From the sequence record PQ724394.1: a stretch of DNA of 64,000 nucleotides. One strand, 5' to 3'. This stretch comes from a phage. The number at the start of each line of letters is the position of its first letter. Positions within the stretch are counted from its first letter, which is position 1. Both the position numbers and the translations under genes were made by a program. The notes beneath the pieces were generated by a model that was not told the DNA's origin, searched no databases, and saw nothing but the letters and a program-made list of their open reading frames with translations. This document shows, piece after piece, positions 3,814-57,737 of the stretch.

Positions 3814-3904
3814 TATATTTTTCCTTTTTCAATTCATTAATAAGTTAGATAATTATAAACTGCTAGATTAAAGCGAATAAATATTAATTTAACAGGAGGA
3901 TAAC

Positions 3905-6266: not shown

Positions 6267-6294
6267 TTTTAACTCCTCATTAGTGGATAGGTCT

Positions 6295-6324
6295 ATAGTA
6301 TCACTACCATAGACCGTTGTAAAC
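6295..6324 (-). promoter_or_regulatory. early promoter cassette
   Basis: Full conserved motif copy upstream of sp. Confidence 0.65.
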
Positions 6325-6910: not shown

Positions 6911-7240
6911 TTAGATTTCCTCACAGAAGGCCCATTCAGCGTGATAAACCGTAGCGCCTTTGGTATCATTTAAACAAACCACATCTACCGGAGCAATTAC
7001 ACGATAAAGACGAGGTTCTCCTCCCACTGAACGAGCTGCTCGTCCAGCATAAATCTTAGCCAAACCAATATCCTCAGTAAAGAACACACGGTTCAGGTTT
7101 TTCTTACGACCGGTTTCAGACAGAACTCCTGTTTCCTCAGGAGGACAAAGCATATTACCAATATTAGCAAAACTACAACTTCCGTGATAATACACTTTAT
7201 ATTCTGCTTTACAGTCGATGGTTTTCATTTTGTTCTCCAT
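6911..7240 (-). CDS. hypothetical protein; candidate Arr-family (H-G-S) mono-ADP-ribosyltransferase
   Basis: 109 aa; YYHGS at residues 17-21, downstream FFTED and PVD; early promoter cassette upstream; extra gene between dmd and 41 relative to T4. Confidence 0.5.
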   Translation of the reverse strand: MENKMKTIDCKAEYKVYYHGSCSFANIGNMLCPPEETGVLSETGRKKNLNRVFFTEDIGLAKIYAGRAARSVGGEPRLYRVIAPVDVVCLNDTKGATVYHAEWAFCEEI

Positions 7241-7253
7241 TAGTTGATAGGTC

Positions 7254-7283
7254 TATAGTATCATGCCTACAGGAGAAGTAAAC
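7254..7283 (-). promoter_or_regulatory. early promoter cassette
   Basis: Full conserved motif copy upstream of 6911-7240. Confidence 0.65.
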
Positions 7284-18497: not shown

Positions 18498-18860
18498 TTA
18501 ATTACCAATGGTATACTTAGACAATAGTTCCCAGTCATTTTTCTGTTTAAAGGAAATGACACGGAAATTATTAGTAATTTCGAACAATTCAGAATCGTCT
18601 ACAATATCAATAAGTCCCCAATCCTTAAGAAGCTGGGCGATAGAATCACGGCGTTGGTAGTCTTCACCATCGATATCTACCTGGCGACCGTCCATACGCA
18701 ACATCTCTTTAAAGTGGACAATATAATACCGTCCTTGCTTTTGCAAAATGTGACAGGATTGATATAGTTTCTTTTCTTTATTATTGGCGATACCCATACG
18801 AGTCAGGGTCTCTTTCACTTTCAAGAAGTCTTCAGGTTGTTTCAGAGTAATTTCAATCAT
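18498..18860 (-). CDS. regA: translational repressor RegA
   Basis: 120 aa; MIEITLK.PEDFLKVKETLTRMGIANNK nearly identical to T4 RegA. Confidence 0.9.
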   Translation of the reverse strand: MIEITLKQPEDFLKVKETLTRMGIANNKEKKLYQSCHILQKQGRYYIVHFKEMLRMDGRQVDIDGEDYQRRDSIAQLLKDWGLIDIVDDSELFEITNNFRVISFKQKNDWELLSKYTIGN

Positions 18861-20389: not shown

Positions 20390-20450
20390 ATTAATTTCCT
20401 CAGGTTTGTTTTTACATTATACTCCAAGGGAGGAAATTCCTCCCTATGCT

Positions 20451-21609: not shown

Positions 21610-21650
21610 TTAGTTGGTAAATGTATTATAAATCAATATTTTAAAGCAAT

Positions 21651-27100: not shown

Positions 27101-27430
27101 TCATTTCGCAGCCTTAACAATTTTCAGGTCAACGAATTTTTTCTTACGTTGATTCTTCATACGACGGATGGTTTTGTCTGTAATTTCACCCGGCTGCCAA
27201 GCTTTAGATTCGACACCAAAGGCGGCAACATCAAACTCGTCGAGAATATATTGAACCAGGATTTCACGAATACCGTTCTTACCAATTTTTTGGTCTTTAG
27301 AGTGCATAATTGGTAACAGTTCAGCAACCCATTGGTCAAGAACCTGAGGAGTTACAAAGCCGGTTTTCATCAGTTCGTTAACTTTATCGAAAGCGAAAGA
27401 GTTCAGTACGTTTTTAATAGCTTGTGACAT
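27101..27430 (-). CDS. hypothetical protein (109 aa)
   Basis: ORF; early promoter upstream; shares a 26-nt initiation region with gene 34022-34867. Confidence 0.45.
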   Translation of the reverse strand: MSQAIKNVLNSFAFDKVNELMKTGFVTPQVLDQWVAELLPIMHSKDQKIGKNGIREILVQYILDEFDVAAFGVESKAWQPGEITDKTIRRMKNQRKKKFVDLKIVKAAK

Positions 27431-27469
27431 AATAATTTCCTCAGTTTAAAATTTATAATCCGTGGGGCC

Positions 27470-27499
27470 ATTATACTCTGGTCCCAAGAGTTTGTAAAC
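27470..27499 (-). promoter_or_regulatory. early promoter (GTTTAC-N18-TATAAT)
   Basis: Upstream of 27101-27430. Confidence 0.55.
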
Positions 27500-27699
27500 T
27501 ATTTTTGTGCTAATGCACCTTTCCAGCCTTCATACATCATCGCGGCTGATATCAATATTGCTCCTGAGCATTTTGAATATTTGTTATTCCAAAACCAGTT
27601 TAGAAAAACTTCGTCATCAATACCTTGGGCTATCATGTTTTCAAAGAACTGACGACGGGCTTCAGCAATTCGTTGTGATAATTTAGATTCAGGATTCAT
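27499..27699 (-). CDS. hypothetical protein (66 aa)
   Basis: ORF. Confidence 0.35.
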   Translation of the reverse strand: MNPESKLSQRIAEARRQFFENMIAQGIDDEVFLNWFWNNKYSKCSGAILISAAMMYEGWKGALAQK

Positions 27700-27924
27700 T
27701 TAAATTTTCCAGTTACCGTTTTCATCAATAAATTCAATCCAGTCATTTACTGACCACTTAGTCGTATCGCCTTTTGGAGCAACATTTAAGGTGTATAATC
27801 CTTGTTTAAAAAGCATACGTTTGATATTCATATTTTCCTCAGCTGTAACGATAGCACTCGTTTGATTTACGTTTTGCAACTCGATGAGAAGTATTGTAAT
27901 CAGGTTCATCGTCATTGTAAACAT
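27700..27924 (-). CDS. hypothetical protein (74 aa)
   Basis: ORF. Confidence 0.35.
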   Translation of the reverse strand: MFTMTMNLITILLIELQNVNQTSAIVTAEENMNIKRMLFKQGLYTLNVAPKGDTTKWSVNDWIEFIDENGNWKI

Positions 27925-28132
27925 CTTTTTTCAGCTTTCTCACTTCTTTACGAAGTTGGCGATTCATTTCATTCTTAACTTCAGAATCAACGCCACGCAT
28001 ACGTTTCCACTTGTCAGAACGGAAGATATTTTCTTCAACTCGTTCCTGACTTACGCCGTCTGGTGCTTTACGACGTCCGGAATAATAAAAATCTTTTACA
28101 GACAATTCTTTACGACGGATAGTTTTACCCAT
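27839..28132 (-). CDS. hypothetical basic protein (97 aa)
   Basis: ORF overlapping its neighbour by 86 nt; start uncertain. Confidence 0.3.
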   Translation of the reverse strand: MGKTIRRKELSVKDFYYSGRRKAPDGVSQERVEENIFRSDKWKRMRGVDSEVKNEMNRQLRKEVRKLKKDVYNDDEPDYNTSHRVAKRKSNECYRYS

Positions 28133-28134
28133 AG

Positions 28135-28389
28135 TTACCTCAACAGTTTGTATCCAATAAGATTTTTAATGTACTGGATATCTTTGATATCCAAATCCAA
28201 CTTAAGGTCTTTCAGACGGTCGGCCAAGGTCAAAAAGGTTACATGCTTCCAATTCTTCACTGGGCAGCAATAAGTCTTAGGACCATTTGCAATTTCAATA
28301 TTCTTATCAGTGACGGTGAGAAAAATTAGGCGCTCATCATCCAGATTAAGGGTGACGACATTTTTCATTGAATGCAATTTCAGGCTCAT
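28135..28389 (-). CDS. hypothetical protein (84 aa)
   Basis: ORF. Confidence 0.4.
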   Translation of the reverse strand: MSLKLHSMKNVVTLNLDDERLIFLTVTDKNIEIANGPKTYCCPVKNWKHVTFLTLADRLKDLKLDLDIKDIQYIKNLIGYKLLR

Positions 28390-28562
28390 AATTTAATTTC
28401 CTTAGCTATCGAACAAAATACACCACGGTCACAAATCATTTTAATATTAAGGTCAATTATAGTATACCACACGTCCAGGCTAGATATTTCAGTTACTAGA
28501 ACAGCTTTGCCATTGATTGAATAATACTGGTTGACTTTAATTTCTTTATCTTGGATAGTCAT
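28386..28562 (-). CDS. hypothetical protein (58 aa)
   Basis: GAGGAG RBS and early promoter cassette upstream; translated by hand. Confidence 0.35.
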   Translation of the reverse strand: MTIQDKEIKVNQYYSINGKAVLVTEISSLDVWYTIIDLNIKMICDRGVFCSIAKEIKL

Positions 28563-28590
28563 AATGTTCTCCTCATGTGTTGATAGGATA

Positions 28591-28620
28591 GACTATAACA
28601 CGTGAGGAGAGGAAGTAAAC
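28591..28620 (-). promoter_or_regulatory. early promoter (GTTTAC-N17-TATAGT)
   Basis: Upstream of 28386-28562. Confidence 0.6.
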
Positions 28621-28621
28621 A

Positions 28622-28939
28622 CTAATCTTCAATTAAATCTCGGTCATAGCCAAGCTCAATCAAAAGGGATTTGAAGGCAGGAATATTTTCTATTTTCTTA
28701 TTATCAACAAAGATTACAGGATAGCGTATAGCTAAGCTCTTGAAGCCAGCACGTTTGGCCAATGATACTATAAGAGGCTTATCATATACTGCGCCTGACG
28801 GCGTCTGGTTAATCACAGGATAGAAAGTATATTGGATAGAAAGGGAATTTAGGAGCGATAGAACTGCAATGCACCCTGGACAGCGCATGACCGTCTCAGG
28901 GATACCGTAAATCTCAATTTTAGTTAACTTTTGGTCCAC
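28622..28939 (-). CDS. glutaredoxin/NrdH-like redoxin, probable GTG start
   Basis: Thioredoxin-fold pattern KIEIYG...CPGC; AAGGAG RBS 8 nt upstream of GTG at 28939; the longer ATG-initiated frame overlaps the neighbouring gene. Confidence 0.45.
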   Translation of the reverse strand: MDQKLTKIEIYGIPETVMRCPGCIAVLSLLNSLSIQYTFYPVINQTPSGAVYDKPLIVSLAKRAGFKSLAIRYPVIFVDNKKIENIPAFKSLLIELGYDRDLIED

Positions 28940-29216
28940 AGGAAATAACTCCTTGGTAGTCCCAAGTTTTGATAACTTCGTCTTCATTAGTTCCATACGG
29001 GATGTAAATCTGGATAAGGAACCCAGTATCATCAAAAGAGAAGTAGACAGTAGGTTTAATACCATGAATCTCTGAAAGAGCATAGATGTCCTTGAGGTCA
29101 TCTTCCTTATCTTTAAAGAATTCTGGGTTCAGGTCACAGTCATGGAAGTACCATTCTTGGCCAAACTTGTCCCAAGCGCCCCAATCAGTAGCTACATACT
29201 CTTCAAAACGTTTCAT
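28920..29216 (-). CDS. hypothetical protein (98 aa)
   Basis: ORF. Confidence 0.4.
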   Translation of the reverse strand: MKRFEEYVATDWGAWDKFGQEWYFHDCDLNPEFFKDKEDDLKDIYALSEIHGIKPTVYFSFDDTGFLIQIYIPYGTNEDEVIKTWDYQGVISCGPKVN

Positions 29217-29440
29217 TCTTTCACCTTCATCATTTTAGAAATAACACTATGAACAGACTGGATTCGTTTTTCGAACTCAGAATCTTCAAGACCCTTTTCA
29301 GTACTCAGCGCACCAATCATCACAAACAGCAATCCAAATGGGATAACCAGGATTAAAAGGCACACAATAAACAGGACAAATGTAATATTGGCCAGGATAT
29401 CAGAAGCAGCATTACGAAATTTATTCATACGATAGTCCAT
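29213..29440 (-). CDS. hypothetical membrane protein (75 aa)
   Basis: ORF with hydrophobic helix. Confidence 0.4.
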   Translation of the reverse strand: MDYRMNKFRNAASDILANITFVLFIVCLLILVIPFGLLFVMIGALSTEKGLEDSEFEKRIQSVHSVISKMMKVKE

Positions 29441-29534
29441 GTATTAGTTACAACAAATAACCATTGGGCAGGATACTCAACACCCATGCGCCGGATAATA
29501 TCATTCATAGATTCGGTTAAGGCATAAAAATTAA

Positions 29535-30008
29535 TCATTTAAGCGATTTCCTCAGTTGTTTTTTAAATGAATCGACCATTTGTTTCTTTGTGTCAGATTC
29601 ATTATAAGCCATTCCGTGTGAAAGCATTTCAGCAATCATTTCTTCCTTACCTAATCTACTGAACTCTTTGGTTTTATCAGGAACGAAATTAGGATGGATA
29701 TTGTTTTCAGTATAATCAGATTTCAGATAGACCAGCAAATTCTCTAACCATTCGAGGTAGTCAACATTTTGACCTTTAAGACCAGAACGGTTGAACTTAT
29801 GCTTCATTTGTCCTTCTGCAGCATTGCACAGGTTACATAGTAAACCACGAACCTTACCGGCTTTTGGCCCATTCAATTCATGGTCGTGGTCAAGGTGGTT
29901 ACTTTGAACATCAGGGTTTAATTCACGTTTACAAATCAAACACTTACCATGTTGTGCATCATAAAGTTTTTGTTTTTCTTCTTTGTATAGTTTGCCAGTC
30001 AACAACAT
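29535..30008 (-). CDS. 49: endonuclease VII (Holliday junction resolvase)
   Basis: 157 aa; about 90 percent identical to T4 endo VII as recalled (MLLTGKLYKEEKQK...CNLCNAAEGQMKHKF). Confidence 0.95.
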   Translation of the reverse strand: MLLTGKLYKEEKQKLYDAQHGKCLICKRELNPDVQSNHLDHDHELNGPKAGKVRGLLCNLCNAAEGQMKHKFNRSGLKGQNVDYLEWLENLLVYLKSDYTENNIHPNFVPDKTKEFSRLGKEEMIAEMLSHGMAYNESDTKKQMVDSFKKQLRKSLK

Positions 30009-30509
30009 AATAAACCCTTACCATTATTAGATAAGGGTATTTATTAAACGTTATAAAATGAGCGATGCAACCGTTTAAATTGACGAATCATCTTTTTGGT
30101 AGGACGGGTGTATAATCCTACACAAGTGGCCATAAACTGGTCAGTAGGACTTCCTTTGATAAGAAGTTTCCATACCTTGTCACCATTTAACTTTTCAGTA
30201 TAGACTAATACAGTTTTCATCAGAACGCCTTATCAGCAAAGCGGAGTTGAGCTTCAAGCCAATGGATATAATCGGCTGCGGCTTTAATTAAATCAGACTC
30301 TAGGTCAGGTAAAGAACCCGAATCCGATAACTCGTAAAGCGAATGTTCAATCAGACGGCCTTTATGACGGCCAACTTCAATTTTGGTACTCATATCCAAA
30401 CTCCATATCGATTAAATCATTGTTTGAAGGTTCATTATACTCTATTTCGGAATCGTTGTAAACTGGTTCCTCTGGCTCGGTAGTTTCCCACCGAGCGACA
30501 TACCATGGC

Positions 30510-30818
30510 TTAACGGTCACGCCACCAACTACTTACTTCAAAATCAGGCTCGCCGTTTTCCCAATACCAAGGGCCAACCGGGTGCCAATCACCATGCTCA
30601 TCTTCTTCAAATTCTTCGGATTCGAGCCCGACGTATTGCCATTGGACTTCATAAGCAATGCCGCCGATTACAACGGTGTTCTCGCCGTATGGGTGAGCTA
30701 CAACAAAGTCAATACCTTCTGCTTTAGCCAACCAAACCATATATTCATATAGTTTATATTCTAGGTCGTCTTCGGTGCCATCACCTAGAAAAATGGTTTG
30801 TTCATTTAATTCAATCAT
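30510..30818 (-). CDS. hypothetical acidic protein (102 aa)
   Basis: ORF. Confidence 0.4.
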   Translation of the reverse strand: MIELNEQTIFLGDGTEDDLEYKLYEYMVWLAKAEGIDFVVAHPYGENTVVIGGIAYEVQWQYVGLESEEFEEDEHGDWHPVGPWYWENGEPDFEVSSWWRDR

Positions 30819-30972
30819 TTAAAGTTCCAGAATGAAGCCCCAACTAGAAATAAAGGCCAACAAATCATAGACGTCAACCACCAACAAAAATCACCGGAAT
30901 CATCCAATTTAGCTAGGGTCTTAGCATAACCAATGCCGATGATAAGATACAAAACACCCAACAATAATTCAA

Positions 30973-31236
30973 TCATTTGAAATATGCTCGCAGTTGGTCA
31001 AAGCCACCAATAGAAGTTCCATCAGGAGCAAATACCTGAGGCATAGTCAAACCTACTTGAGATTCACGTCCAAGAGCAGCCAGGAGTTCAGCAATCTTCT
31101 CATCATCAAATACACCTTTTTCCGGCATCACGTTAATGAATTCGTAAGGTTGTTTCTTAACATCAAGCAGACGTTTAGCATTATCACAGAAAACACAACG
31201 GTGAATATTTGAATCGTAACCATAAACTTTAAACAT
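30973..31236 (-). CDS. nrdC: thioredoxin/glutaredoxin NrdC
   Basis: 87 aa; MFKVYGYDSNIH.CV.CDNAKRLL nearly identical to T4 NrdC. Confidence 0.9.
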   Translation of the reverse strand: MFKVYGYDSNIHRCVFCDNAKRLLDVKKQPYEFINVMPEKGVFDDEKIAELLAALGRESQVGLTMPQVFAPDGTSIGGFDQLRAYFK

Positions 31237-31237
31237 T

Positions 31238-31474
31238 TTAAATTCCTAATACTTGTTTGAATGCTTCAGAACGGTCAAGTTCTGTTCCGTATTTTTCGAG
31301 GTGTTCGTATTTTAAATCATACACATCAGATAGTATATTATTATACGAACGAGTTAAAGCAGATTTCAATACTGAATAACTGTCCGGAAATTTACCATGC
31401 TCTTTATAATAAGCCAGAGTAAGTTCGCGGACTGCCTTATCGGCAGCCTCTACATATTCTTTACGCTTTGCCAT
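31238..31474 (-). CDS. hypothetical protein (78 aa)
   Basis: ORF; start placed at internal Met to minimise overlap. Confidence 0.4.
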
Positions 31475-31772
31475 TTTCGTCTCGCTCAAATTTGTGTTTG
31501 CAATGGCGGCATTTATATCGAAGATTACTGGTTTGCCAATGGACCAATTGAACCTGTTCTGTGCCACACTTAGGACAGTTAGGAACATTCTTAGAAGCTT
31601 GTTCTCGTCGTGCGACCATAGCCATTACTGCATCCCAATTAACGGCATCACCATAATCATCACAACCATGAATTTTACCAACCAATTCAACTTCAACATC
31701 CTCGGCTTTAATAAATTTCAATAAACCGGTATTAGATGCTGAAGCAATATCTTCAGCTAAACGTTGTTTCAT
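31461..31772 (-). CDS. zinc-ribbon protein (103 aa)
   Basis: CPKCG...CRHCKHKF four-Cys ribbon. Confidence 0.45.
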
Positions 31773-32779
31773 TTCAACAGCTCCAGAGCCTGTTCAAGAC
31801 GGTCTAAACGATTGGTAGACTCTTCCCAAAGTTTCTTGGCAGCGGTATATTGGCCAGTCAGTTTTTTGTTAATAGCCAAGGCATCTTTATACGCTTTTTC
31901 TAAGGCAACGATTTCCGGTAACTTGGATTTAGTAATTGGTGTATGGGCCATGATAGGGCTGTTCAAGTCGTTAATCAAGTCTTCTAATGTAGCAGGCTCT
32001 TTATCAGTATTCACAATTTCCTCACATTTTTCTTGGTAAATTTCAGCGTCAGTTTTTGGAACAGGCCATTTGATTTCGCGAACTGTTACTAAAACTTCAT
32101 ATCCTTTCCAGCCTAAGTGGTGTTTAACTTCTTGGGTCTCATATTTCTCTACTGTATCCATCAAAGCTAAGGCTTGTTCGATAGTATTCAAGGTATCGTA
32201 AGCAATATCTTGATACTTTACAACTTCCGCATCATCTTTAGGTTTCCAACTAGGTGACCAAATAACAGAAATAATAGCTTTTCCTTTATAACTATTTGTT
32301 TTAATCATGCAATTAGCCATCGGGTGAATAGTACGACAATCACCGGAAACTATAGTTTTAGAGGCCGCTTTGAGAATTAATGCAGAGTTAGCCTTGAATT
32401 CGCTAACCCAACGTTGCGGAAATAAACTACTAGGGTCCATACCTTTAATTTTGACATAATCTTTTATGGTATCACCAAACCATTTGTAGCTAACAACATG
32501 GTTAGAACCCGGATATTTCTCTTTACCGAACTCAGAAAGGATGTCCTTATTGACCAGTCGAGAAAGCAGTCGAGAACCTTTAAATGTATCTACGATATCA
32601 GGAATAAACAAACGACCCGCTATCTTTTCGATTTCAGCTTTGAAACAGCGCGATAATGCATCATCAATTTGGTCGACCCATTTATTGATATTAGAAACTA
32701 TTACCACATATGGGGTTAATGGAGGGGTTTTGTCAGTGATATACTTAGTAAAGGCATTAATGTATTCAGTACGGGTCAT
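31769..32779 (-). CDS. hypothetical protein (336 aa)
   Basis: Long ORF; start at ATG 32779 with GAGGAG RBS; early promoter cassette upstream. Confidence 0.55.
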   Translation of the reverse strand: MTRTEYINAFTKYITDKTPPLTPYVVIVSNINKWVDQIDDALSRCFKAEIEKIAGRLFIPDIVDTFKGSRLLSRLVNKDILSEFGKEKYPGSNHVVSYKWFGDTIKDYVKIKGMDPSSLFPQRWVSEFKANSALILKAASKTIVSGDCRTIHPMANCMIKTNSYKGKAIISVIWSPSWKPKDDAEVVKYQDIAYDTLNTIEQALALMDTVEKYETQEVKHHLGWKGYEVLVTVREIKWPVPKTDAEIYQEKCEEIVNTDKEPATLEDLINDLNSPIMAHTPITKSKLPEIVALEKAYKDALAINKKLTGQYTAAKKLWEESTNRLDRLEQALELLK

Positions 32780-32807
32780 GATATTCTCCTCAGTAGTTGA
32801 TAAAAGG

Positions 32808-32837
32808 ATTATACTCCATCCGTCCTTGGATGTAAAC
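32808..32837 (-). promoter_or_regulatory. early promoter (GTTTAC-N18-TATAAT)
   Basis: Upstream of 31769-32779. Confidence 0.6.
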
Positions 32838-32838
32838 A

Positions 32839-33744
32839 CTATTTTAGAGCTAATAGTGCCGCGCTGAGCTTGTCACGCTGGTTTTCCATATTCTTGATGC
32901 GGGTCAATACGTCTTGAATGCTCTTTTTCTCATCTTCAATCTGACCATTTAAACGGTGGATTGATTCCTGAATGCTATCTGCATAATAGGTCTCAATAGG
33001 TTTCATCGTAGGGTTAGTAACAACCAAAGAATTATCAGGTTTAATTTTCCAATGATACGGTTCGGAATTGAATGGACTAGGCACAGCAGTGGTTTTGAAT
33101 TTGTCATAGGCAGCATACTGGCCTACGCTGTCACATGATACTGTAGAGGTAGCGGTAGATATACGACGTTCCATTTGTGGGTCCTTTTGTTGGGATTGAT
33201 AAGGGGCATAAGATAAAAGATATTCGCGAGTTAGTTTAACATTAAAATACACTGCATCGGCTTGCCCTGAACAATCGGCATATTCATCGGTTGTAACTTT
33301 ATACGATTCTACCGCTTTAATACGATTTAATGCTTCTTTGAATAGGGTTTTGAATGCTTCACGAAGAGCCTTATTACCTTTTGAGGTAGGACGGAAACGA
33401 ACTTGAATACCGTCAGCCAGAATATTAATGACTAGGTTATGAGCCGTAAAATTAATATTCTTGATATTAACAGGAACCGTAGAAATACGTCCTGCAGTGG
33501 CCAAGAGGTCTTTGATATTAGCCCGCAATGTTGCACCAAACAGGTGGGCTGGGCACCGGCAATAATCGTTCAAAGAACTAATATAGGTCCCTTTACGTCC
33601 TACACCATAAGTATAATTACCATTACAAATATGACCAAAGTCGGCCAGCCGATCGATAGCGATACGACGAGTCGTATCGTGGTCGTATATAGAATATTCT
33701 TTACGTGTTTTAATGTTCATATTAAAGTCCAAATAATTTTTCAT
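32839..33744 (-). CDS. hypothetical protein (301 aa)
   Basis: Long ORF, C-terminal coiled coil. Confidence 0.55.
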   Translation of the reverse strand: MKNYLDFNMNIKTRKEYSIYDHDTTRRIAIDRLADFGHICNGNYTYGVGRKGTYISSLNDYCRCPAHLFGATLRANIKDLLATAGRISTVPVNIKNINFTAHNLVINILADGIQVRFRPTSKGNKALREAFKTLFKEALNRIKAVESYKVTTDEYADCSGQADAVYFNVKLTREYLLSYAPYQSQQKDPQMERRISTATSTVSCDSVGQYAAYDKFKTTAVPSPFNSEPYHWKIKPDNSLVVTNPTMKPIETYYADSIQESIHRLNGQIEDEKKSIQDVLTRIKNMENQRDKLSAALLALK

Positions 33745-33937
33745 AGAATTTAGCGAAAGGCCATGCGATACACATTATAATGCCCACTATCCAAAACATA
33801 GGCCATGCTAAAGTAGTGAATACTGCATCATACTCATCACCGGTTTCATACGGACTATCAAACTTATGGAGCAGTACAGTAGTAATGAATCCTATCACAA
33901 AATATCCAAAAATAGAACCAATAATTAAAGTAGTCAT
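33722..33937 (-). CDS. hypothetical membrane protein (71 aa)
   Basis: Two hydrophobic helices. Confidence 0.45.
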   Translation of the reverse strand: MTTLIIGSIFGYFVIGFITTVLLHKFDSPYETGDEYDAVFTTLAWPMFWIVGIIMCIAWPFAKFYEKLFGL

Positions 33938-34021
33938 ATTAACCTATAATGTTTGAGAAAATTAGCCACAGAACACCCGTGGCTACGATTACATATCCAA
34001 GAACAGCGAGCCATTCCATAA

Positions 34022-34867
34022 TTAATCCTTAAGAAGATTTAGGATATCGATATATTTCTGACGTTCAGCCTTAGCTTTGGCATTCAGACCAGAGAGTCGG
34101 AAAATCTCATCATCTTGTTGTTGGATTGTAACATTCAAGCAAGTAAGCAAATTGCTAAAATACTCAATCTGGGCTTGATGTTTCTCATTGCTGCGCACTG
34201 GTACAGGTTCCATTTTAGGAGCTTGTTCTGAATGCTCTTCAGCCAGGTCTTTAATTTTATAAAGTTTAATACGTTGACCTACTCCAGTTTCAGCATCACC
34301 AAAACTAAGAACACCGTGCTGTTCTAATTCAGACAGGGCTAATCGGAGATGGAACTTCCAGTTGTCATATTGACAACCACTAAAAGTTGAAATGGTATAC
34401 TCATTTTCATTTCCGGGGTGGTTAACAATATTAAAGATAATCCAATCGCCTGAACCATTGGTCTTAAAGGTCATTTGTTTATCAAGACCTTTTGCAAGGC
34501 GAGCGCCAAGAGCCAGTAGACGTCGTTGGTTGGCATGAAGGTCTTGAACAACTTCGTCAAATGACATCGCAGGGATTAAACGACCGTAGAGGTCGTAGCC
34601 TTTGTTATAATTTTTAAGAATAATTTTGGCATTAGCACGAGACAACATACCTGTTTTACGAAGAGTTTTCATGACTCGGTCTTCTAACGTAAACGAACCT
34701 TTAGTCTTGTCAAAGATTTTAGTGAAGTCATCTTTAACAGTACAAACATTGAACTTGTCCCACATCATATATAGGACCTTTTCAACCACTTCTTTAGAAC
34801 TAGGAATACGGCCAAATTTAACAACTTTTTTAACTTCAGAACGAATTTGATTAATTGCTTGTGACAT
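34022..34867 (-). CDS. hypothetical protein (281 aa)
   Basis: Long ORF; MotA-type promoter upstream. Confidence 0.55.
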   Translation of the reverse strand: MSQAINQIRSEVKKVVKFGRIPSSKEVVEKVLYMMWDKFNVCTVKDDFTKIFDKTKGSFTLEDRVMKTLRKTGMLSRANAKIILKNYNKGYDLYGRLIPAMSFDEVVQDLHANQRRLLALGARLAKGLDKQMTFKTNGSGDWIIFNIVNHPGNENEYTISTFSGCQYDNWKFHLRLALSELEQHGVLSFGDAETGVGQRIKLYKIKDLAEEHSEQAPKMEPVPVRSNEKHQAQIEYFSNLLTCLNVTIQQQDDEIFRLSGLNAKAKAERQKYIDILNLLKD

Positions 34868-34904
34868 AATAATTTCCTCAGTAAGTAATTAAGAACCTAG
34901 AACC

Positions 34905-34929
34905 ATTATACCATCCTTGGTATAAAGCG
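34905..34929 (-). promoter_or_regulatory. MotA-type middle promoter candidate
   Basis: GCTTTA box, 12-nt spacer, TATAAT; upstream of 34022-34867. Confidence 0.4.
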
Positions 34930-34930
34930 T

Positions 34931-35455
34931 TTATGCGAGAACCGTCTTTAAACGCTCTTCAAATTTCTGAAGCAGAGCTTGGCGTTCAGCTCGTTGTGAT
35001 TTGTACTGCTCGATACGACCTGAAGTGAGGGCGTACTGTTCGTTTACTGATTCCCGCATAAATTCAGGAATCTCTTTACAAGCTTTGATTTCGTCAAACT
35101 TATCAATAACTGCTTGTTGTTCAGCAATCAAGTTATCGAAATAAGCGATATCTGATTTAACGTTTGCCAGGTCAGATTCAGTAGGCATTAAACGTTTATT
35201 ACGCTCGGCTTGATAAGCTTGGTTGGTTTCACGACTCCAGTGAAGAGTACGTTTTTTGTTGGTGTTTTTATAGAGCTCTACAATACCAACTGAATCGATT
35301 ACAGCAATCCAGTTCCAACGGCTTTTGTAAATCTCTCCTCCAGATACGGTAATCTCATTACCACAAGCAACATCATTAAAGAACTTGCTTTGTTTTTCAG
35401 ATTTGAAATTACCATTGTTAAAATTAATCAGTGAAAAAATATCTTTAGCGTTCAT
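34931..35455 (-). CDS. hypothetical protein (174 aa)
   Basis: GGAGG RBS; early promoter cassette upstream. Confidence 0.5.
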   Translation of the reverse strand: MNAKDIFSLINFNNGNFKSEKQSKFFNDVACGNEITVSGGEIYKSRWNWIAVIDSVGIVELYKNTNKKRTLHWSRETNQAYQAERNKRLMPTESDLANVKSDIAYFDNLIAEQQAVIDKFDEIKACKEIPEFMRESVNEQYALTSGRIEQYKSQRAERQALLQKFEERLKTVLA

Positions 35456-35480
35456 GATAACCTCCAGTAGTTGATAGGTC

Positions 35481-35510
35481 TATAGTATCATTTCTACTGG
35501 AGATGTAAAC
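35481..35510 (-). promoter_or_regulatory. early promoter cassette
   Basis: Full conserved motif copy upstream of 34931-35455. Confidence 0.65.
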
Positions 35511-39892: not shown

Positions 39893-39919
39893 ACTGTTCT
39901 CCTCATTAGTTGATAGGTC

Positions 39920-39949
39920 TATAGTATCACGTTCCTAGAGGATGTAAAC
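39920..39949 (-). promoter_or_regulatory. early promoter cassette
   Basis: Full conserved motif copy upstream of 39656-39892. Confidence 0.65.
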
Positions 39950-44188: not shown

Positions 44189-44215
44189 TTTGTAATCTCC
44201 TGTAGTTGATAGGTC

Positions 44216-44245
44216 TATAGTACCACGTCTACAGGAGATGTAAAC
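44216..44245 (-). promoter_or_regulatory. early promoter cassette
   Basis: Full conserved motif copy upstream of regB. Confidence 0.65.
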
Positions 44246-46523: not shown

Positions 46524-46548
46524 TTTAATCTCCTGTAGTTGATAGGTC

Positions 46549-46578
46549 TATAGTATCATGCCTACTGGAGATGTAAAC
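46549..46578 (-). promoter_or_regulatory. early promoter cassette
   Basis: Full conserved motif copy upstream of denV. Confidence 0.65.
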
Positions 46579-49276: not shown

Positions 49277-49307
49277 TTTATTCTCCATTTCACTCTGTTG
49301 TTTTGAT

Positions 49308-49342
49308 AGGTCTATAGTATCACACCTATAGACCTTGTATAC
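49308..49342 (-). promoter_or_regulatory. promoter-like cassette variant (-35 GTATAC)
   Basis: Conserved GATACTATAGACCTATCAAAAC segment with degenerate -35; upstream of 49064-49276. Confidence 0.4.
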
Positions 49343-50516: not shown

Positions 50517-50756
50517 TTAAATTTCAGCAACGTAATCGTTATGCAATTCCCACATATCATCAGAATTATTCTTAATGATAGGAATTATCTCATTAGAGAT
50601 TTCTTCTGCATAAGGGTCGTTGATACAGTGGGCATCTTCAAAACGAACACCGTAATCAGACTTCTTATAGGCAAAGCCATAAATCTTTTTAAACTTGGCA
50701 CGACTAATGCGTACCGGCTCATCAGACTTATCAGACAGTGGAGAGTAATACCACAT
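50517..50756 (-). CDS. hypothetical protein (79 aa)
   Basis: GAGGAG RBS. Confidence 0.45.
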   Translation of the reverse strand: MWYYSPLSDKSDEPVRISRAKFKKIYGFAYKKSDYGVRFEDAHCINDPYAEEISNEIIPIIKNNSDDMWELHNDYVAEI

Positions 50757-50800
50757 AATGTTCTCCTCATGTTTGAGTAAGGTAATAGTAACACAAGTTT

Positions 50801-52424: not shown

Positions 52425-52810
52425 GATTTACATTCCTTAATAAAGGTTTCAAGGTCATTACGTTTGGTTTGTTTTACATACTCATTATAATTAGCCATCT
52501 CTAAAGCATATCTCTTACGGATGGGGGCATTCAAAGCATTTGTATGGCAAATATCATACACTAGAGGGATAAAATAAGCCACGACAGCCGGAGCGATTAT
52601 CATATAGAAACCCATCTCAATAGGCATGACTCCTTCGATTGCGGCCATAACTGTGGTCATTACCAGACCAACCAGACCGCCGAGCATACCTGTGACAATT
52701 CCCGTGAATAAGGAAATAGCAATATCATATTCAGCCAATTGATAAACATGCGATGAAAGACTAGGCCGTTCCATTTTGAACCTCTTTAGCGTATTCACGG
52801 CATTCAGCAA
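52421..52810 (-). CDS. hypothetical membrane protein (129 aa)
   Basis: Hydrophobic helices; C-terminal FIKECKS. Confidence 0.45.
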   Translation of the reverse strand: MLNAVNTLKRFKMERPSLSSHVYQLAEYDIAISLFTGIVTGMLGGLVGLVMTTVMAAIEGVMPIEMGFYMIIAPAVVAYFIPLVYDICHTNALNAPIRKRYALEMANYNEYVKQTKRNDLETFIKECKS

Positions 52811-54740: not shown

Positions 54741-54774
54741 TTTACTCCCCTTCACACTGTTGTTTTGATAGGTC

Positions 54775-54804
54775 TATAGTATCACGTTTAAAGGAGGTGT
54801 AAAC
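54775..54804 (-). promoter_or_regulatory. early promoter cassette
   Basis: Conserved motif copy upstream of 54477-54740. Confidence 0.6.
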
Positions 54805-55509: not shown

Positions 55510-55517
55510 TATTTATA
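55510..55517 (-). promoter_or_regulatory. late promoter (TATAAATA) for internal-protein-like gene
   Basis: TATAAATA about 30 nt upstream of ATG at 55481; directly follows a terminator hairpin. Confidence 0.55.
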
Positions 55518-55518
55518 C

Positions 55519-55546
55519 AAAAAAGGCCCAACCTTTTGGAAGGGCC
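55519..55546 (-). terminator. intrinsic terminator (copy 1 of duplicated cassette)
   Basis: GGCCCTTCC-AAAA-GGTTGGGCC hairpin plus T6 run. Confidence 0.65.
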
Positions 55547-56132: not shown

Positions 56133-56140
56133 TATTTATA
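56133..56140 (-). promoter_or_regulatory. late promoter (TATAAATA)
   Basis: TATAAATA about 28 nt upstream of ATG at 56106; part of duplicated cassette. Confidence 0.55.
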
Positions 56141-56141
56141 C

Positions 56142-56169
56142 AAAAAAGGCCCAACCTTTCGGAAGGGCC
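56142..56169 (-). terminator. intrinsic terminator (copy 2 of duplicated cassette)
   Basis: GGCCCTTCC-GAAA-GGTTGGGCC hairpin plus T6 run. Confidence 0.65.
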
Positions 56170-57672: not shown

Positions 57673-57707
57673 TTTATTCTCCAATCACTCATTTGTTTTG
57701 ATAGGTC

Positions 57708-57737
57708 TATAGTATCATGCCTATAGACCTTGTAAAC
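57708..57737 (-). promoter_or_regulatory. early promoter cassette
   Basis: Conserved motif copy upstream of 57487-57672. Confidence 0.6.

Follow-up and report, generated by a model that had tools for sequence, protein, structure and literature searches.

The window analysed here is a stretch of 64,000 nucleotides (64 kb) of phage DNA (PQ724394.1) that is 95–96% identical to phages of the JS98 group, and the phage that carries it is a Dhakavirus, a JS98-like T4-type coliphage. Two of its minus-strand genes, annotated in the JS98-group phages as 55.2 and nrdC.6, are considered below. The 55.2 homolog (27101–27430) encodes a 109-aa protein that begins MSQAIKNV and falls into Pfam DUF7570 and phrog_1475, and the nrdC.6 homolog (34022–34867) encodes a 281-aa protein that begins MSQAINQI and falls into phrog_2257, without a Pfam family. 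T4 gp55.2 is an inhibitor of E. coli topoisomerase I, and its over-expression is toxic (PMC4396842).

An identical 26-nt translation-initiation segment in both genes was pointed out in an earlier note on this DNA, and we confirmed that the window contains exactly two copies of GCTTGTGACATAATAATTTCCTCAGT, at 27420–27445 (copy 1, 55.2) and 34857–34882 (copy 2, nrdC.6). No third copy was found in the window even when up to three mismatches were allowed. On the minus (coding) strand the segment reads ACTGAGGAAATTATT-ATG-TCACAAGC and runs from −15 to +11 relative to the start codon in both ORFs: a Shine-Dalgarno (SD) GAGG, an 8-nt A/U spacer (AAATTATT), the ATG and the next 8 nt, that is, codons 2 and 3 and two bases of codon 4. 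The segment had been described as covering the ribosome-binding site and the first five codons; this holds for the ribosome-binding site and the first codons, but the fifth codon, for the Ile common to both proteins, lies just beyond the exact repeat. Past the repeat, one mismatch is followed by five more matching bases (ATTAA). The bases that go beyond a generic SD-AUG core are ACU at −15 to −13 and UCACAAGC at +4 to +11. Among the exact repeats of the window this one is the fifth-longest, and outside a family of early promoters the only long exact repeats are the 26-mer and one terminator/late-promoter pair.

Both sites look like functional translation starts. GAGG stands 8 nt before the ATG in each, and both ATGs align with the starts of conserved protein families across genera. 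The minimum free energies of the start regions were −3.8 and −3.7 kcal/mol (z = +1.6 and +2.0), and 195/200 and 199/200 shuffles, respectively, folded at least as stably as the two leaders; a conserved RNA structure was rejected, both leaders being less structured than shuffles. An antisense promoter within the repeat was also rejected: a plus-strand match (GTGACA-N17-TAAAAT) is seen at the 55.2 copy only, because its −10 box falls outside the repeat.

Promoters and other features near the two starts

Copy 1 is preceded, at a distance of about 25 nt, by a sigma-70/T4-early-type promoter (27470–27498, minus strand; TTTACA-N17-TATAAT, 11/12), from which a short-leader transcript with 55.2 as its first cistron is predicted. 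Copy 2 follows, by about 22 nt, a middle-promoter-like site (34905–34928, minus strand), in which a Mot-box-like GCTTTA is followed after 12 nt by TATAAT; it is kept in Gapriver- and Mosigvirus relatives. The Mot-box-like pattern occurs four times in the window against 0.07 expected, every time on the coding strand. The repeated early-promoter family of the window (GTTTACA...GATACTATAGACCTATCAAC, nine copies) is unlike the 26-mer, and a common promoter family was rejected as the source of the repeat, since this cassette differs in sequence and 55.2 and nrdC.6 have promoters of unlike type.

Two further minus-strand features bear on regulation. A homolog of regA, the translational repressor, is encoded at 18498–18860 (PF01818, E = 7e-59) and is the candidate trans-acting factor should the sites be operators. 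The SD-spacer of gene 44 (CCTGAGGAAATTAAT, 20390–20404), a gene in whose product gp44 domains were found, matches the focal upstream segment at 13/15 positions, and the T4 gene 44 mRNA is the classical RegA operator (PMC3014915). The window also holds an internal control: another unrelated gene pair, at 28386–28562 and 50517–50756, has an identical 19-nt SD-spacer-ATG.

The two proteins are unrelated beyond their first residues

The two genes had been called otherwise unrelated, a view that would fall if the proteins were full-length paralogs, and every comparison upheld it. BLASTP between the 55.2 and nrdC.6 proteins gave no alignment at E ≤ 100. An hhalign comparison of the family alignments returned a probability of 2.7% over columns 1–8, with nothing aligned further on, and the Pfam and PHROG families, the lengths and the conserved columns all differ. 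Paralogy was accordingly rejected.

The resemblance at the N-terminus might instead reflect a shared ancient module, either from a common ancestor or as a duplicated leader plus an N-terminal peptide with a function of its own. Such a module would explain MSQAI(K/N) in both proteins, the vague similarity of the T4 versions (MTIQIKNV in 55.2, MSVVINNV in nrdC.6) and the fact that hhalign aligned residues 1–8 at all. We nevertheless regard it as highly improbable: in addition to the low hhalign probability and the different lengths, families and conserved columns, Ser is the second residue of 19/114 predicted proteins in the window, a third gene there begins MSQA using different codons, and by a rough estimate about one pair of proteins per genome is expected to have its first five residues identical.

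How generic is the start, and how likely is the match?

The 16-mer TGAGGAAATTATTATG was found in more than 120 viral contigs, ahead of more than 80 unrelated ORFs. It also precedes two further Dhakavirus genes outside the window, and at least four Dhakavirus genes carry it in all. A 19-mer that takes in codon 2 as well was confined to Dhakavirus among 2.9 million viral contigs. In the IMG/VR contigs the 26-mer and the 19-mer lie only at the same two loci and only in Dhakavirus, and a mobile or repeated element was rejected.

Chance in its naive form is ruled out for a 26/26 match, as had been supposed. The 26-mer did not turn up in 100 shuffles, and modelling the translation starts of this phage position by position still gave only 6e-8 expected pairs per window. 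This position-weight-matrix model understates the real similarity of starts because it ignores SD register and gene subclasses, and empirical pair frequencies were therefore also used. We counted how often, among 6441 gene pairs, the 15 nt upstream and the 8 nt downstream are identical, and from these frequencies estimated the chance as about 8e-4 per window and about 4e-3 per genome. Both the model and the empirical estimate rest on crude gene calls: the 114 ORFs were picked by SD score, and a few of their starts are wrong. Among the same 6441 pairs of the window 26/26 is an outlier, the runner-up pair reaching 22/26. With an empirical chance of only ~1e-3 to 5e-3 per genome, a coincidence calls for a look-elsewhere argument, whose elements are the many phage lineages, the many windows and the post hoc choice of the pair.

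Each start has its own history in related phages

When both loci were compared in related phages, the N-terminus and SD of each gene could be followed through its own family into other genera. In many genera 55.2 begins MSQAIKNV behind ACTGAGGAAAWT, and MSQAIKNV together with A(C/A)TGAGGAAA(A/T)T recurs at 55.2 loci of many T4-like lineages at 56–68% protein identity. The nrdC.6 protein starts with MSQAIN in Dhaka- and Gapriverviruses and with MSV(A/V)IN in T4-type phages. Its start region reads ATTGAGGAAAATAAT-ATGTCACAAGCAATTAAT in Gaprivervirus, CTGAGGAAATAGTT-ATG in Mosigvirus and ATGTCAGT(A/C)G(C/T)AATTAAT (MSVAIN or MSVVIN) in T4-type phages, which indicates that the SD, its spacing and the MS.AIN start are older than the genus. 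The identity between the two sites does not extend outside the genus: the 55.2 and nrdC.6 sites agree at 17/26 positions in VR20, from the sister genus, and at 10/26 in the T4-type phage G8.

Across Dhakavirus the exact run between both sites varies from 22 to 29 nt, the differences being at synonymous third positions only, and all changes observed at the two starts within the genus are synonymous, the sites drifting independently in the eight genomes sampled. Codon 3 of nrdC.6 is CAG, not CAA, in 5/6 IMG/VR Dhakavirus genomes, and among these six genomes only JS98 has the exact 26-mer twice; ESCO10 and VR5 have GCA-ATC in 55.2. In GenBank, the exact 56-nt nrdC.6 start was present in 13 records, and 38 others differ from it at one or two positions. 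A seeming third locus in ESCO10, annotated as 'receptor-recognition protein assembly protein', was rejected as a mis-annotated 55.2 homolog. The 22-nt core was invariant at both loci in 6/6 Dhakavirus genomes, even where nrdC.6 protein identity fell to 80%; this fits purifying selection on each start and is also compatible with a common ligand.

Local alignment of the 200-nt flanks on either side of the two sites gave no similarity that was significant against shuffles (p ~0.1), which led us to reject an extended, degraded repeat. The 55.3-55.2 adjacency is retained in JS98 and VR20, and the nrdC.8-nrdC.6 adjacency in Dhaka-, Gapriver- and Mosigvirus, an extra gene lying there in T4-type phages.

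Recombination and a common operator as alternatives

The earlier note had offered a recombination junction as one source of the identity. A short ectopic exchange or gene conversion in the Dhakavirus ancestor might have made the two SD-AUG segments alike, both sites being the 3' ends of PeSL/PmSL-type promoter cassettes that perhaps still support a rare 7.4-kb excision. PeSL/PmSL cassettes are units of promoter and stem-loop whose last part is the SD and start codon of the gene that follows, and the crossovers mapped in them lie downstream of the −10 box and upstream of the SD or ATG (PMC2839356, PMC4122927). Both focal loci have the promoter followed by SD and ATG (TTTACA-N17-TATAAT at 27498–27470; GCTTTA-N12-TATAAT at 34928–34905), with the sites 22–25 nt downstream; the 26-nt identity is genus-specific; and nrdC.7, which lies just upstream of nrdC.6 in T4-type phages, is missing from Dhaka-, Gapriver- and Mosigviruses. 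Visual inspection brought out only short stems, CTCT...AGAG at 55.2 and, at nrdC.6, TACCA-AGGA-TGGTA, which overlaps the −10 box; a search of the coding strand gave no terminator-like hairpin. Yet the promoters and leaders are unrelated, one early and one Mot-box type, and no cassette repeat extends across them: the upstream 200 nt were not significantly similar (p = 0.09), the −10 region alone aligning. Between Dhaka- and Gaprivervirus nrdC.6 the supposedly exchanged tract is better kept than the rest of the leader, with differences at 3/15 positions versus 10/16 just upstream (hand count), the outgroup Mosigvirus already carries CTGAGGAAAT at nrdC.6, and the two sites do not co-vary among the strains compared. 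A deletion between the repeats would take out gene 49 and nrdC, and no deletion variant turned up incidentally among 930 matching records. With flanks devoid of residual homology, adjacencies kept, and N-termini and SDs continuous with their own families, the notion of a junction is not supported, and we consider a homogenising exchange quite improbable.

The shared regulatory target, the other source that had been proposed, would be a common translational operator: RegA or another RNA-binding factor would repress both mRNAs by competing with the 30S subunit on the A/U-rich SD-AUG segment, and selection would keep the sites identical. Known RegA sites overlap the AUG or lie just 5' of it and are A+U-rich and unstructured with a 5' A-tract, and the SELEX consensus is aaAAUUGUUAUGUAA (PMC3014915). 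With the AUG aligned, GAAAUUAUUAUGUCA matches this consensus at 9/12 non-AUG positions, the best of the 114 predicted starts in the window; as some start must top a list of 114, the first rank is weak evidence. The regA homolog, the unstructured sites, the 13/15 match to the start of gene 44 and the placement of both genes behind early or middle-type promoters, the class on which RegA acts, all agree with such control, and since T4 gp55.2 is toxic if over-expressed (PMC4396842), a brake on its translation would be reasonable. The consensus is matched, however, only within the generic 16-mer, which also stands ahead of unrelated genes in unrelated viral contigs, and codons 3–5 drift synonymously within Dhakavirus. 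The two sites are dissimilar in the sister genus and in T4-type phages, and T4-type phages also encode RegA. RegA recognition is short and degenerate, so a 26-nt identity is not needed for it. As judged from sequence, it is plausible that 55.2 and nrdC.6 are candidates for RegA repression, and such repression would not account for the 26/26 identity; an operator whose function keeps the two sites identical seems unlikely to us.

Interpretation

We conclude, with a probability of roughly two in three, that the two 26-mers are independently inherited initiation regions of unrelated genes that became identical by convergence and a modest coincidence. What the comparisons establish is the anatomy of the starts, the absence of homology, the separate vertical histories, an identity not conserved outside the genus and synonymous drift within it; from these we infer that the exact match came about by convergence and coincidence and not through gene conversion or selection for identity. 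The 26 bases would agree because a generic strong ribosome-binding site is present at both genes and is joined to old Met-Ser-Gln-Ala protein starts. The segment is predicted to recruit ribosomes through its GAGG core, which stands 8 nt before the AUG in an essentially unstructured leader rich in A/U, with the start just downstream of a putative promoter, early-type for 55.2 and Mot-box middle-type for nrdC.6. The 16-nt SD-spacer-AUG UGAGGAAAUUAUUAUG is a generic optimum that many phages have reached repeatedly, and Met-Ser-(Gln/Val)-Ala-Ile has long been the start of both protein families; in the spacer, a small number of A/T substitutions particular to the lineage would then have coincided. 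The finding is thus ordinary, a known kind of translation start with no trace of a mobile element or recombination scar, and the overall significance of the repeat is small.

There is a slim chance of something broader, in which one factor reading beyond the SD-AUG core drove both starts to identity, or micro-conversion between the ends of promoter cassettes homogenises starts in T4-type genomes. Candidates for such a factor would be RegA with an operator extended in this lineage, an RNA-binding protein or a small RNA, and the factor would co-regulate one early-promoter and one middle-promoter gene in Dhakaviruses. The 55.2 and nrdC.6 genes of JS98-like phages are candidates for RegA-mediated translational repression; if this were true and the extended identity were needed, the known specificity of RegA would be slightly enlarged. 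For repeat scans of T4-type genomes the pair is a caution: exact repeats of 20–30 nt can arise at the starts of unrelated genes because a few near-optimal SD-spacer-AUG sequences are reused and N-terminal Met-Ser is common.

Comparison with known systems

The RegA operators of T4 and RB69 (PMC3014915) resemble the focal sites in their SD-AUG overlap, A+U-richness, A-tract and lack of structure. They are short and non-identical, whereas the focal identity reaches bases that RegA is not known to read. Sites of the RegB endoribonuclease are similar in having an early-type SD region followed by A-rich sequence, and the RegB motif is GGAG in early-gene SDs (PMC3014915). The focal SD reads CUGAGGAAA; since the 26-mer holds GAGG and no GGAG, the sites are not predicted RegB targets, and this identification was rejected. 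PeSL/PmSL cassettes share with the focal loci the order of promoter, SD and start codon within a plastic region where genes are small and of unknown function. They differ in that the focal pair appears to have only the SD-AUG end in common, neither promoter nor stem-loop, and in that no indel between close relatives appears to map to the focal sites. The closest likeness is to the canonical SD initiation regions of T4-type early and middle genes, which have the same GAGG, spacing, A/U spacer, low structure and promoter proximity, and from which the focal pair stands out only by the 26-nt identity of two unrelated genes, eight coding bases included.

Identical translation starts of two unrelated genes

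The window contains two exact copies of the segment GCTTGTGACATAATAATTTCCTCAGT (27420-27445 and 34857-34882), and no third copy was found there at up to three mismatches. On the minus strand, the coding strand for genes of this part of the window, it reads ACTGAGGAAATTATT-ATG-TCACAAGC: 15 nt with a GAGG core and an A/U spacer of 8 nt, followed by ATG and 8 coding nt. Copy 1 starts the ORF at 27101-27430 (109 aa) and copy 2 the ORF at 34022-34867 (281 aa), so that the segment is, as the earlier note had described it, a shared initiation region, with a Shine-Dalgarno (SD) sequence, spacer and ATG in both genes. Past it there is one mismatch, after which ATTAA is also identical; farther out, identity is at background.

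Over 9 kb, the region shares 95-96% identity with the Dhakaviruses (T4-type Straboviridae) JS98, JS10, MN04 and Esco_phi_B-01. In JS98, whose annotation names these genes 55.2 and nrdC.6, the surrounding gene order is unchanged. T4 gp55.2 inhibits E. coli topoisomerase I and is toxic if over-expressed (PMC4396842). The 55.2 product matched Pfam DUF7570 and phrog_1475, and the sole match of the nrdC.6 product in Pfam and PHROGs was phrog_2257. BLASTP gave no alignment between the two proteins at E ≤ 100, and profile-profile comparison of their families (15 and 8 sequences, respectively) returned a probability of 2.7%, with columns 1-8 alone aligned. Judged by these comparisons the proteins are not related; full-length paralogy, which could have undone the earlier view of the genes as otherwise unrelated, was detected by neither method.

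In the record of phage ESCO10 (OM386655.1; locus L180, 1-3032), product names do not line up with the genes: the 55.2 homolog, for instance, is called a "receptor-recognition protein assembly protein", and tail-fiber names are given to small 55.x ORFs. In VR20, of the sister genus Gaprivervirus, nrdG and nrdD lie between 55.8 and gene 49 (L063, 1946-4230), where the window (~29440-29540) and JS98 have neither, a roughly 2.3-kb difference in a plastic region.

Both focal sites are ordinary strong initiation regions. Their leaders are predicted to have almost no structure (folds weaker than in 195/200 shuffles for 55.2 and 199/200 for nrdC.6), GAGG-to-AUG spacing is near-optimal, and each lies ~45 nt downstream of a promoter -10 box. 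Because GGAG, the RegB motif (PMC3014915), is absent from the focal sites, RegB cleavage is not predicted.

Promoters and other repeats

Upstream of copy 1, the minus-strand 55.2 promoter is of sigma-70/T4-early type (TTTACA-N17-TATAAT, 11/12), and nrdC.6 is preceded by a Mot-box-like promoter, GCTTTA-N12-TATAAT (34905-34928, minus). The window has four matches to the pattern GCTTTA-N11-13-TATAAT (0.07 expected), all of them on the coding (minus) strand (3852-3874, 21625-21647, 34905-34928 and 52484-52507), and these sites are probably MotA-dependent middle promoters. A small hairpin, TACCA-AGGA-TGGTA, overlaps the -10 box of the nrdC.6 promoter; promoter and hairpin have changed very little in Gapriver- and Mosigvirus relatives (L051, L054), and the 16 nt directly downstream diverge strongly there.

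By length, the 26-mer ranks fifth among the window's exact repeats. All longer ones and most shorter ones are members of an early-promoter family, and one pair combines terminator and late promoter. The early-promoter cassette is the window's true repeat family, with nine minus-strand copies (6286-6304, 7238-7270, 35467-35491, 39904-39933, 44193-44222, 46526-46565, 49295-49323, 54757-54788 and 57693-57723) that read GTTTACA-N17-GATACTAT-AGACCTATCAAC..., after which come GGAG or GAGG and ATG. Exact identity among them reaches 30 nt, and the conserved part runs from the -10 box on into the initial transcribed region. A 27-nt exact repeat precedes two neighbouring genes (55510-55536 and 56133-56159, minus); its coding strand, GGCCCTTCC(A/G)AAAGGTTGGGCC-TTTTTT-GTATAAATA, resembles an intrinsic terminator hairpin with a T4 late-promoter box, TATAAATA, immediately after it.

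How unusual is the shared segment?

Naive chance, which the earlier note had considered inadequate, is excluded, and no copy turned up in 100 shuffles. A position-weight model predicts 6e-8 pairs per window. Empirical pair frequencies give about 8e-4 per window and 4e-3 per genome, and 26/26 is an outlier among gene pairs, the runner-up matching at 22/26. The coincidence is therefore real but modest, and it is acceptable given that many phage lineages and windows were scanned and the pair was picked post hoc.

The components are common. The 16-mer TGAGGAAATTATTATG was found in at least 120 viral contigs and before at least 80 different, mostly unrelated ORFs among the matches listed, and it precedes two more Dhakavirus genes outside the window; the 19-mer that takes in the codon directly after ATG was confined to Dhakavirus among the viral contigs searched. 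Five other window genes, including gene 44, match the upstream 15-mer at 12-13 positions. The genes at 28386-28562 and 50517-50756, whose products gave no BLASTP match to each other, share an identical 19-nt SD-spacer-ATG, ACATGAGGAGAACATTATG (28560-28578 and 50754-50772, minus), showing that identical starts of unrelated genes recur in this genome. Serine is residue 2 in 19/114 predicted window proteins, and a third window gene begins MSQA with different codons. A further Dhakavirus gene outside the window (MNKLNIVNEL..., 109 aa; IMG/VR loci L094, L133, L069) starts (A/C)CTGAGGAAATTATTATG-AACAAGCT and has the 16-mer plus the ACAAGCT seen after the 55.2 ATG, one base out of frame.

History of each site

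Among forty IMG/VR 55.2 loci, MSQAIKNV and the upstream A(C/A)TGAGGAAA(A/T)T occur in lineages whose 55.2 proteins are just 56-68% identical to that of the window, with variable wobble positions (ATGTC[ACTG]CA[AG]GC[TA]AT[CT]); in T4-type phages the N-terminus is MTIQIKNV. The nrdC.6 start is ATTGAGGAAAATAAT-ATGTCACAAGCAATTAAT in Gapriverviruses (72% protein identity), CTGAGGAAATAGTT-ATG with a different N-terminus in one Mosigvirus, and GAGTGAGGAAAAT-ATGTCAGT(A/C)G(C/T)AATTAAT, encoding MSVAIN or MSVVIN, in T4-type phages. At each locus the SD, its spacing and MS.AI are thus older than the genus and native to that locus, and neither site looks imported from the other.

Site-to-site agreement falls to 17/26 in VR20 and 10/26 in the T4-type phage G8. 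Within the genus, nrdC.6 codon 3 is CAG instead of CAA in 5/6 IMG/VR Dhakavirus genomes, of which only JS98 has the exact 26-mer twice; 13 GenBank records match the 56-nt nrdC.6 start exactly and 38 with one or two differences, and 55.2 of ESCO10 and VR5 has GCA-ATC in place of GCT-ATT. The 26-nt identity is thus not itself conserved. Depending on the strain, the exact shared run is 22 to 29 nt long, and all observed differences are synonymous third-position changes. Such variation would be expected of two independently drifting coding sequences, and not of an RNA element selected for identity or of concerted evolution. Separately, the nrdC.6 promoter, leader and first 15 codons (~34822-34935) are invariant in six Dhakavirus genomes (L042-L047) bar the one CAA/CAG difference, and the remaining protein drops to 80% identity, which suggests strong constraint at this 5' end or mosaic exchange inside the gene.

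Origin of the identity

We favor, with a probability of roughly 0.68, two independent, vertically inherited copies of a strong initiation region of a generic kind, upstream of protein N-termini that have long been similar. A generic GAGG, spacer and AUG in an unstructured leader would recruit initiation at each gene separately, and the similar ancient N-termini of 55.2 and nrdC.6 would extend the match into coding bases.

Selection for a shared ligand such as RegA could also have made the sites identical. The window encodes regA (18498-18860; PF01818, E=7e-59), and RegA sites are A+U-rich and unstructured, contain an A-tract and overlap the AUG or lie just 5' of it (PMC3014915). The unstructured focal GAAAUUAUUAUGUCA matches the SELEX consensus aaAAUUGUUAUGUAA at 9/12 non-AUG positions, the best of 114 window starts, and resembles this phage's gene 44 start, CCTGAGGAAATTAATATG (published gene 44 site, AAAUUAUGAUU; PMC3014915). 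RegA repression of both genes is a reasonable prediction from these matches. The fit, however, is a property of the generic core, identity at -15 to -13 and +4 to +11 is not needed for RegA repression or accounted for by it, and the two loci are not alike in other RegA-encoding genera, making this origin of the identity unlikely. We consider the recombination junction proposed in the earlier note quite improbable as well, although T4-type phages have one more gene, nrdC.7, directly upstream of nrdC.6, which signals plasticity, and the focal architecture is comparable to that of known recombining cassettes. The 200-nt flanks have no significant similarity (p about 0.1), the upstream flanks align only at the -10 box of promoters that differ in kind, and gene adjacencies are kept (55.3-55.2 in JS98 and VR20; nrdC.8-nrdC.6 in Dhaka-, Gapriver- and Mosigviruses). 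In the nrdC.6 leader, Dhaka- and Gapriverviruses differ at 3/15 positions of the repeat segment versus 10/16 just upstream (manual count), the opposite of what a recent conversion tract would give. What survives of the earlier proposal is the shared initiation region beyond naive chance; the comparison of related phages that it had suggested places each start as native to its own locus, with identity lost outside the genus.

Two independently inherited initiation regions would be a phenomenon of an already known kind. The PeSL and PmSL cassettes of T4-like phages are promoter and stem-loop units whose last elements are the SD and start codon of the gene that follows, with recombination sites between the -10 box and ATG (PMC2839356, PMC4122927). 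The window's nine-copy early-promoter cassette resembles the published PeSL elements. The two focal sites have no promoter or stem-loop sequence in common, but they share with these cassettes the order of a promoter followed by the SD and start codon of the downstream gene.
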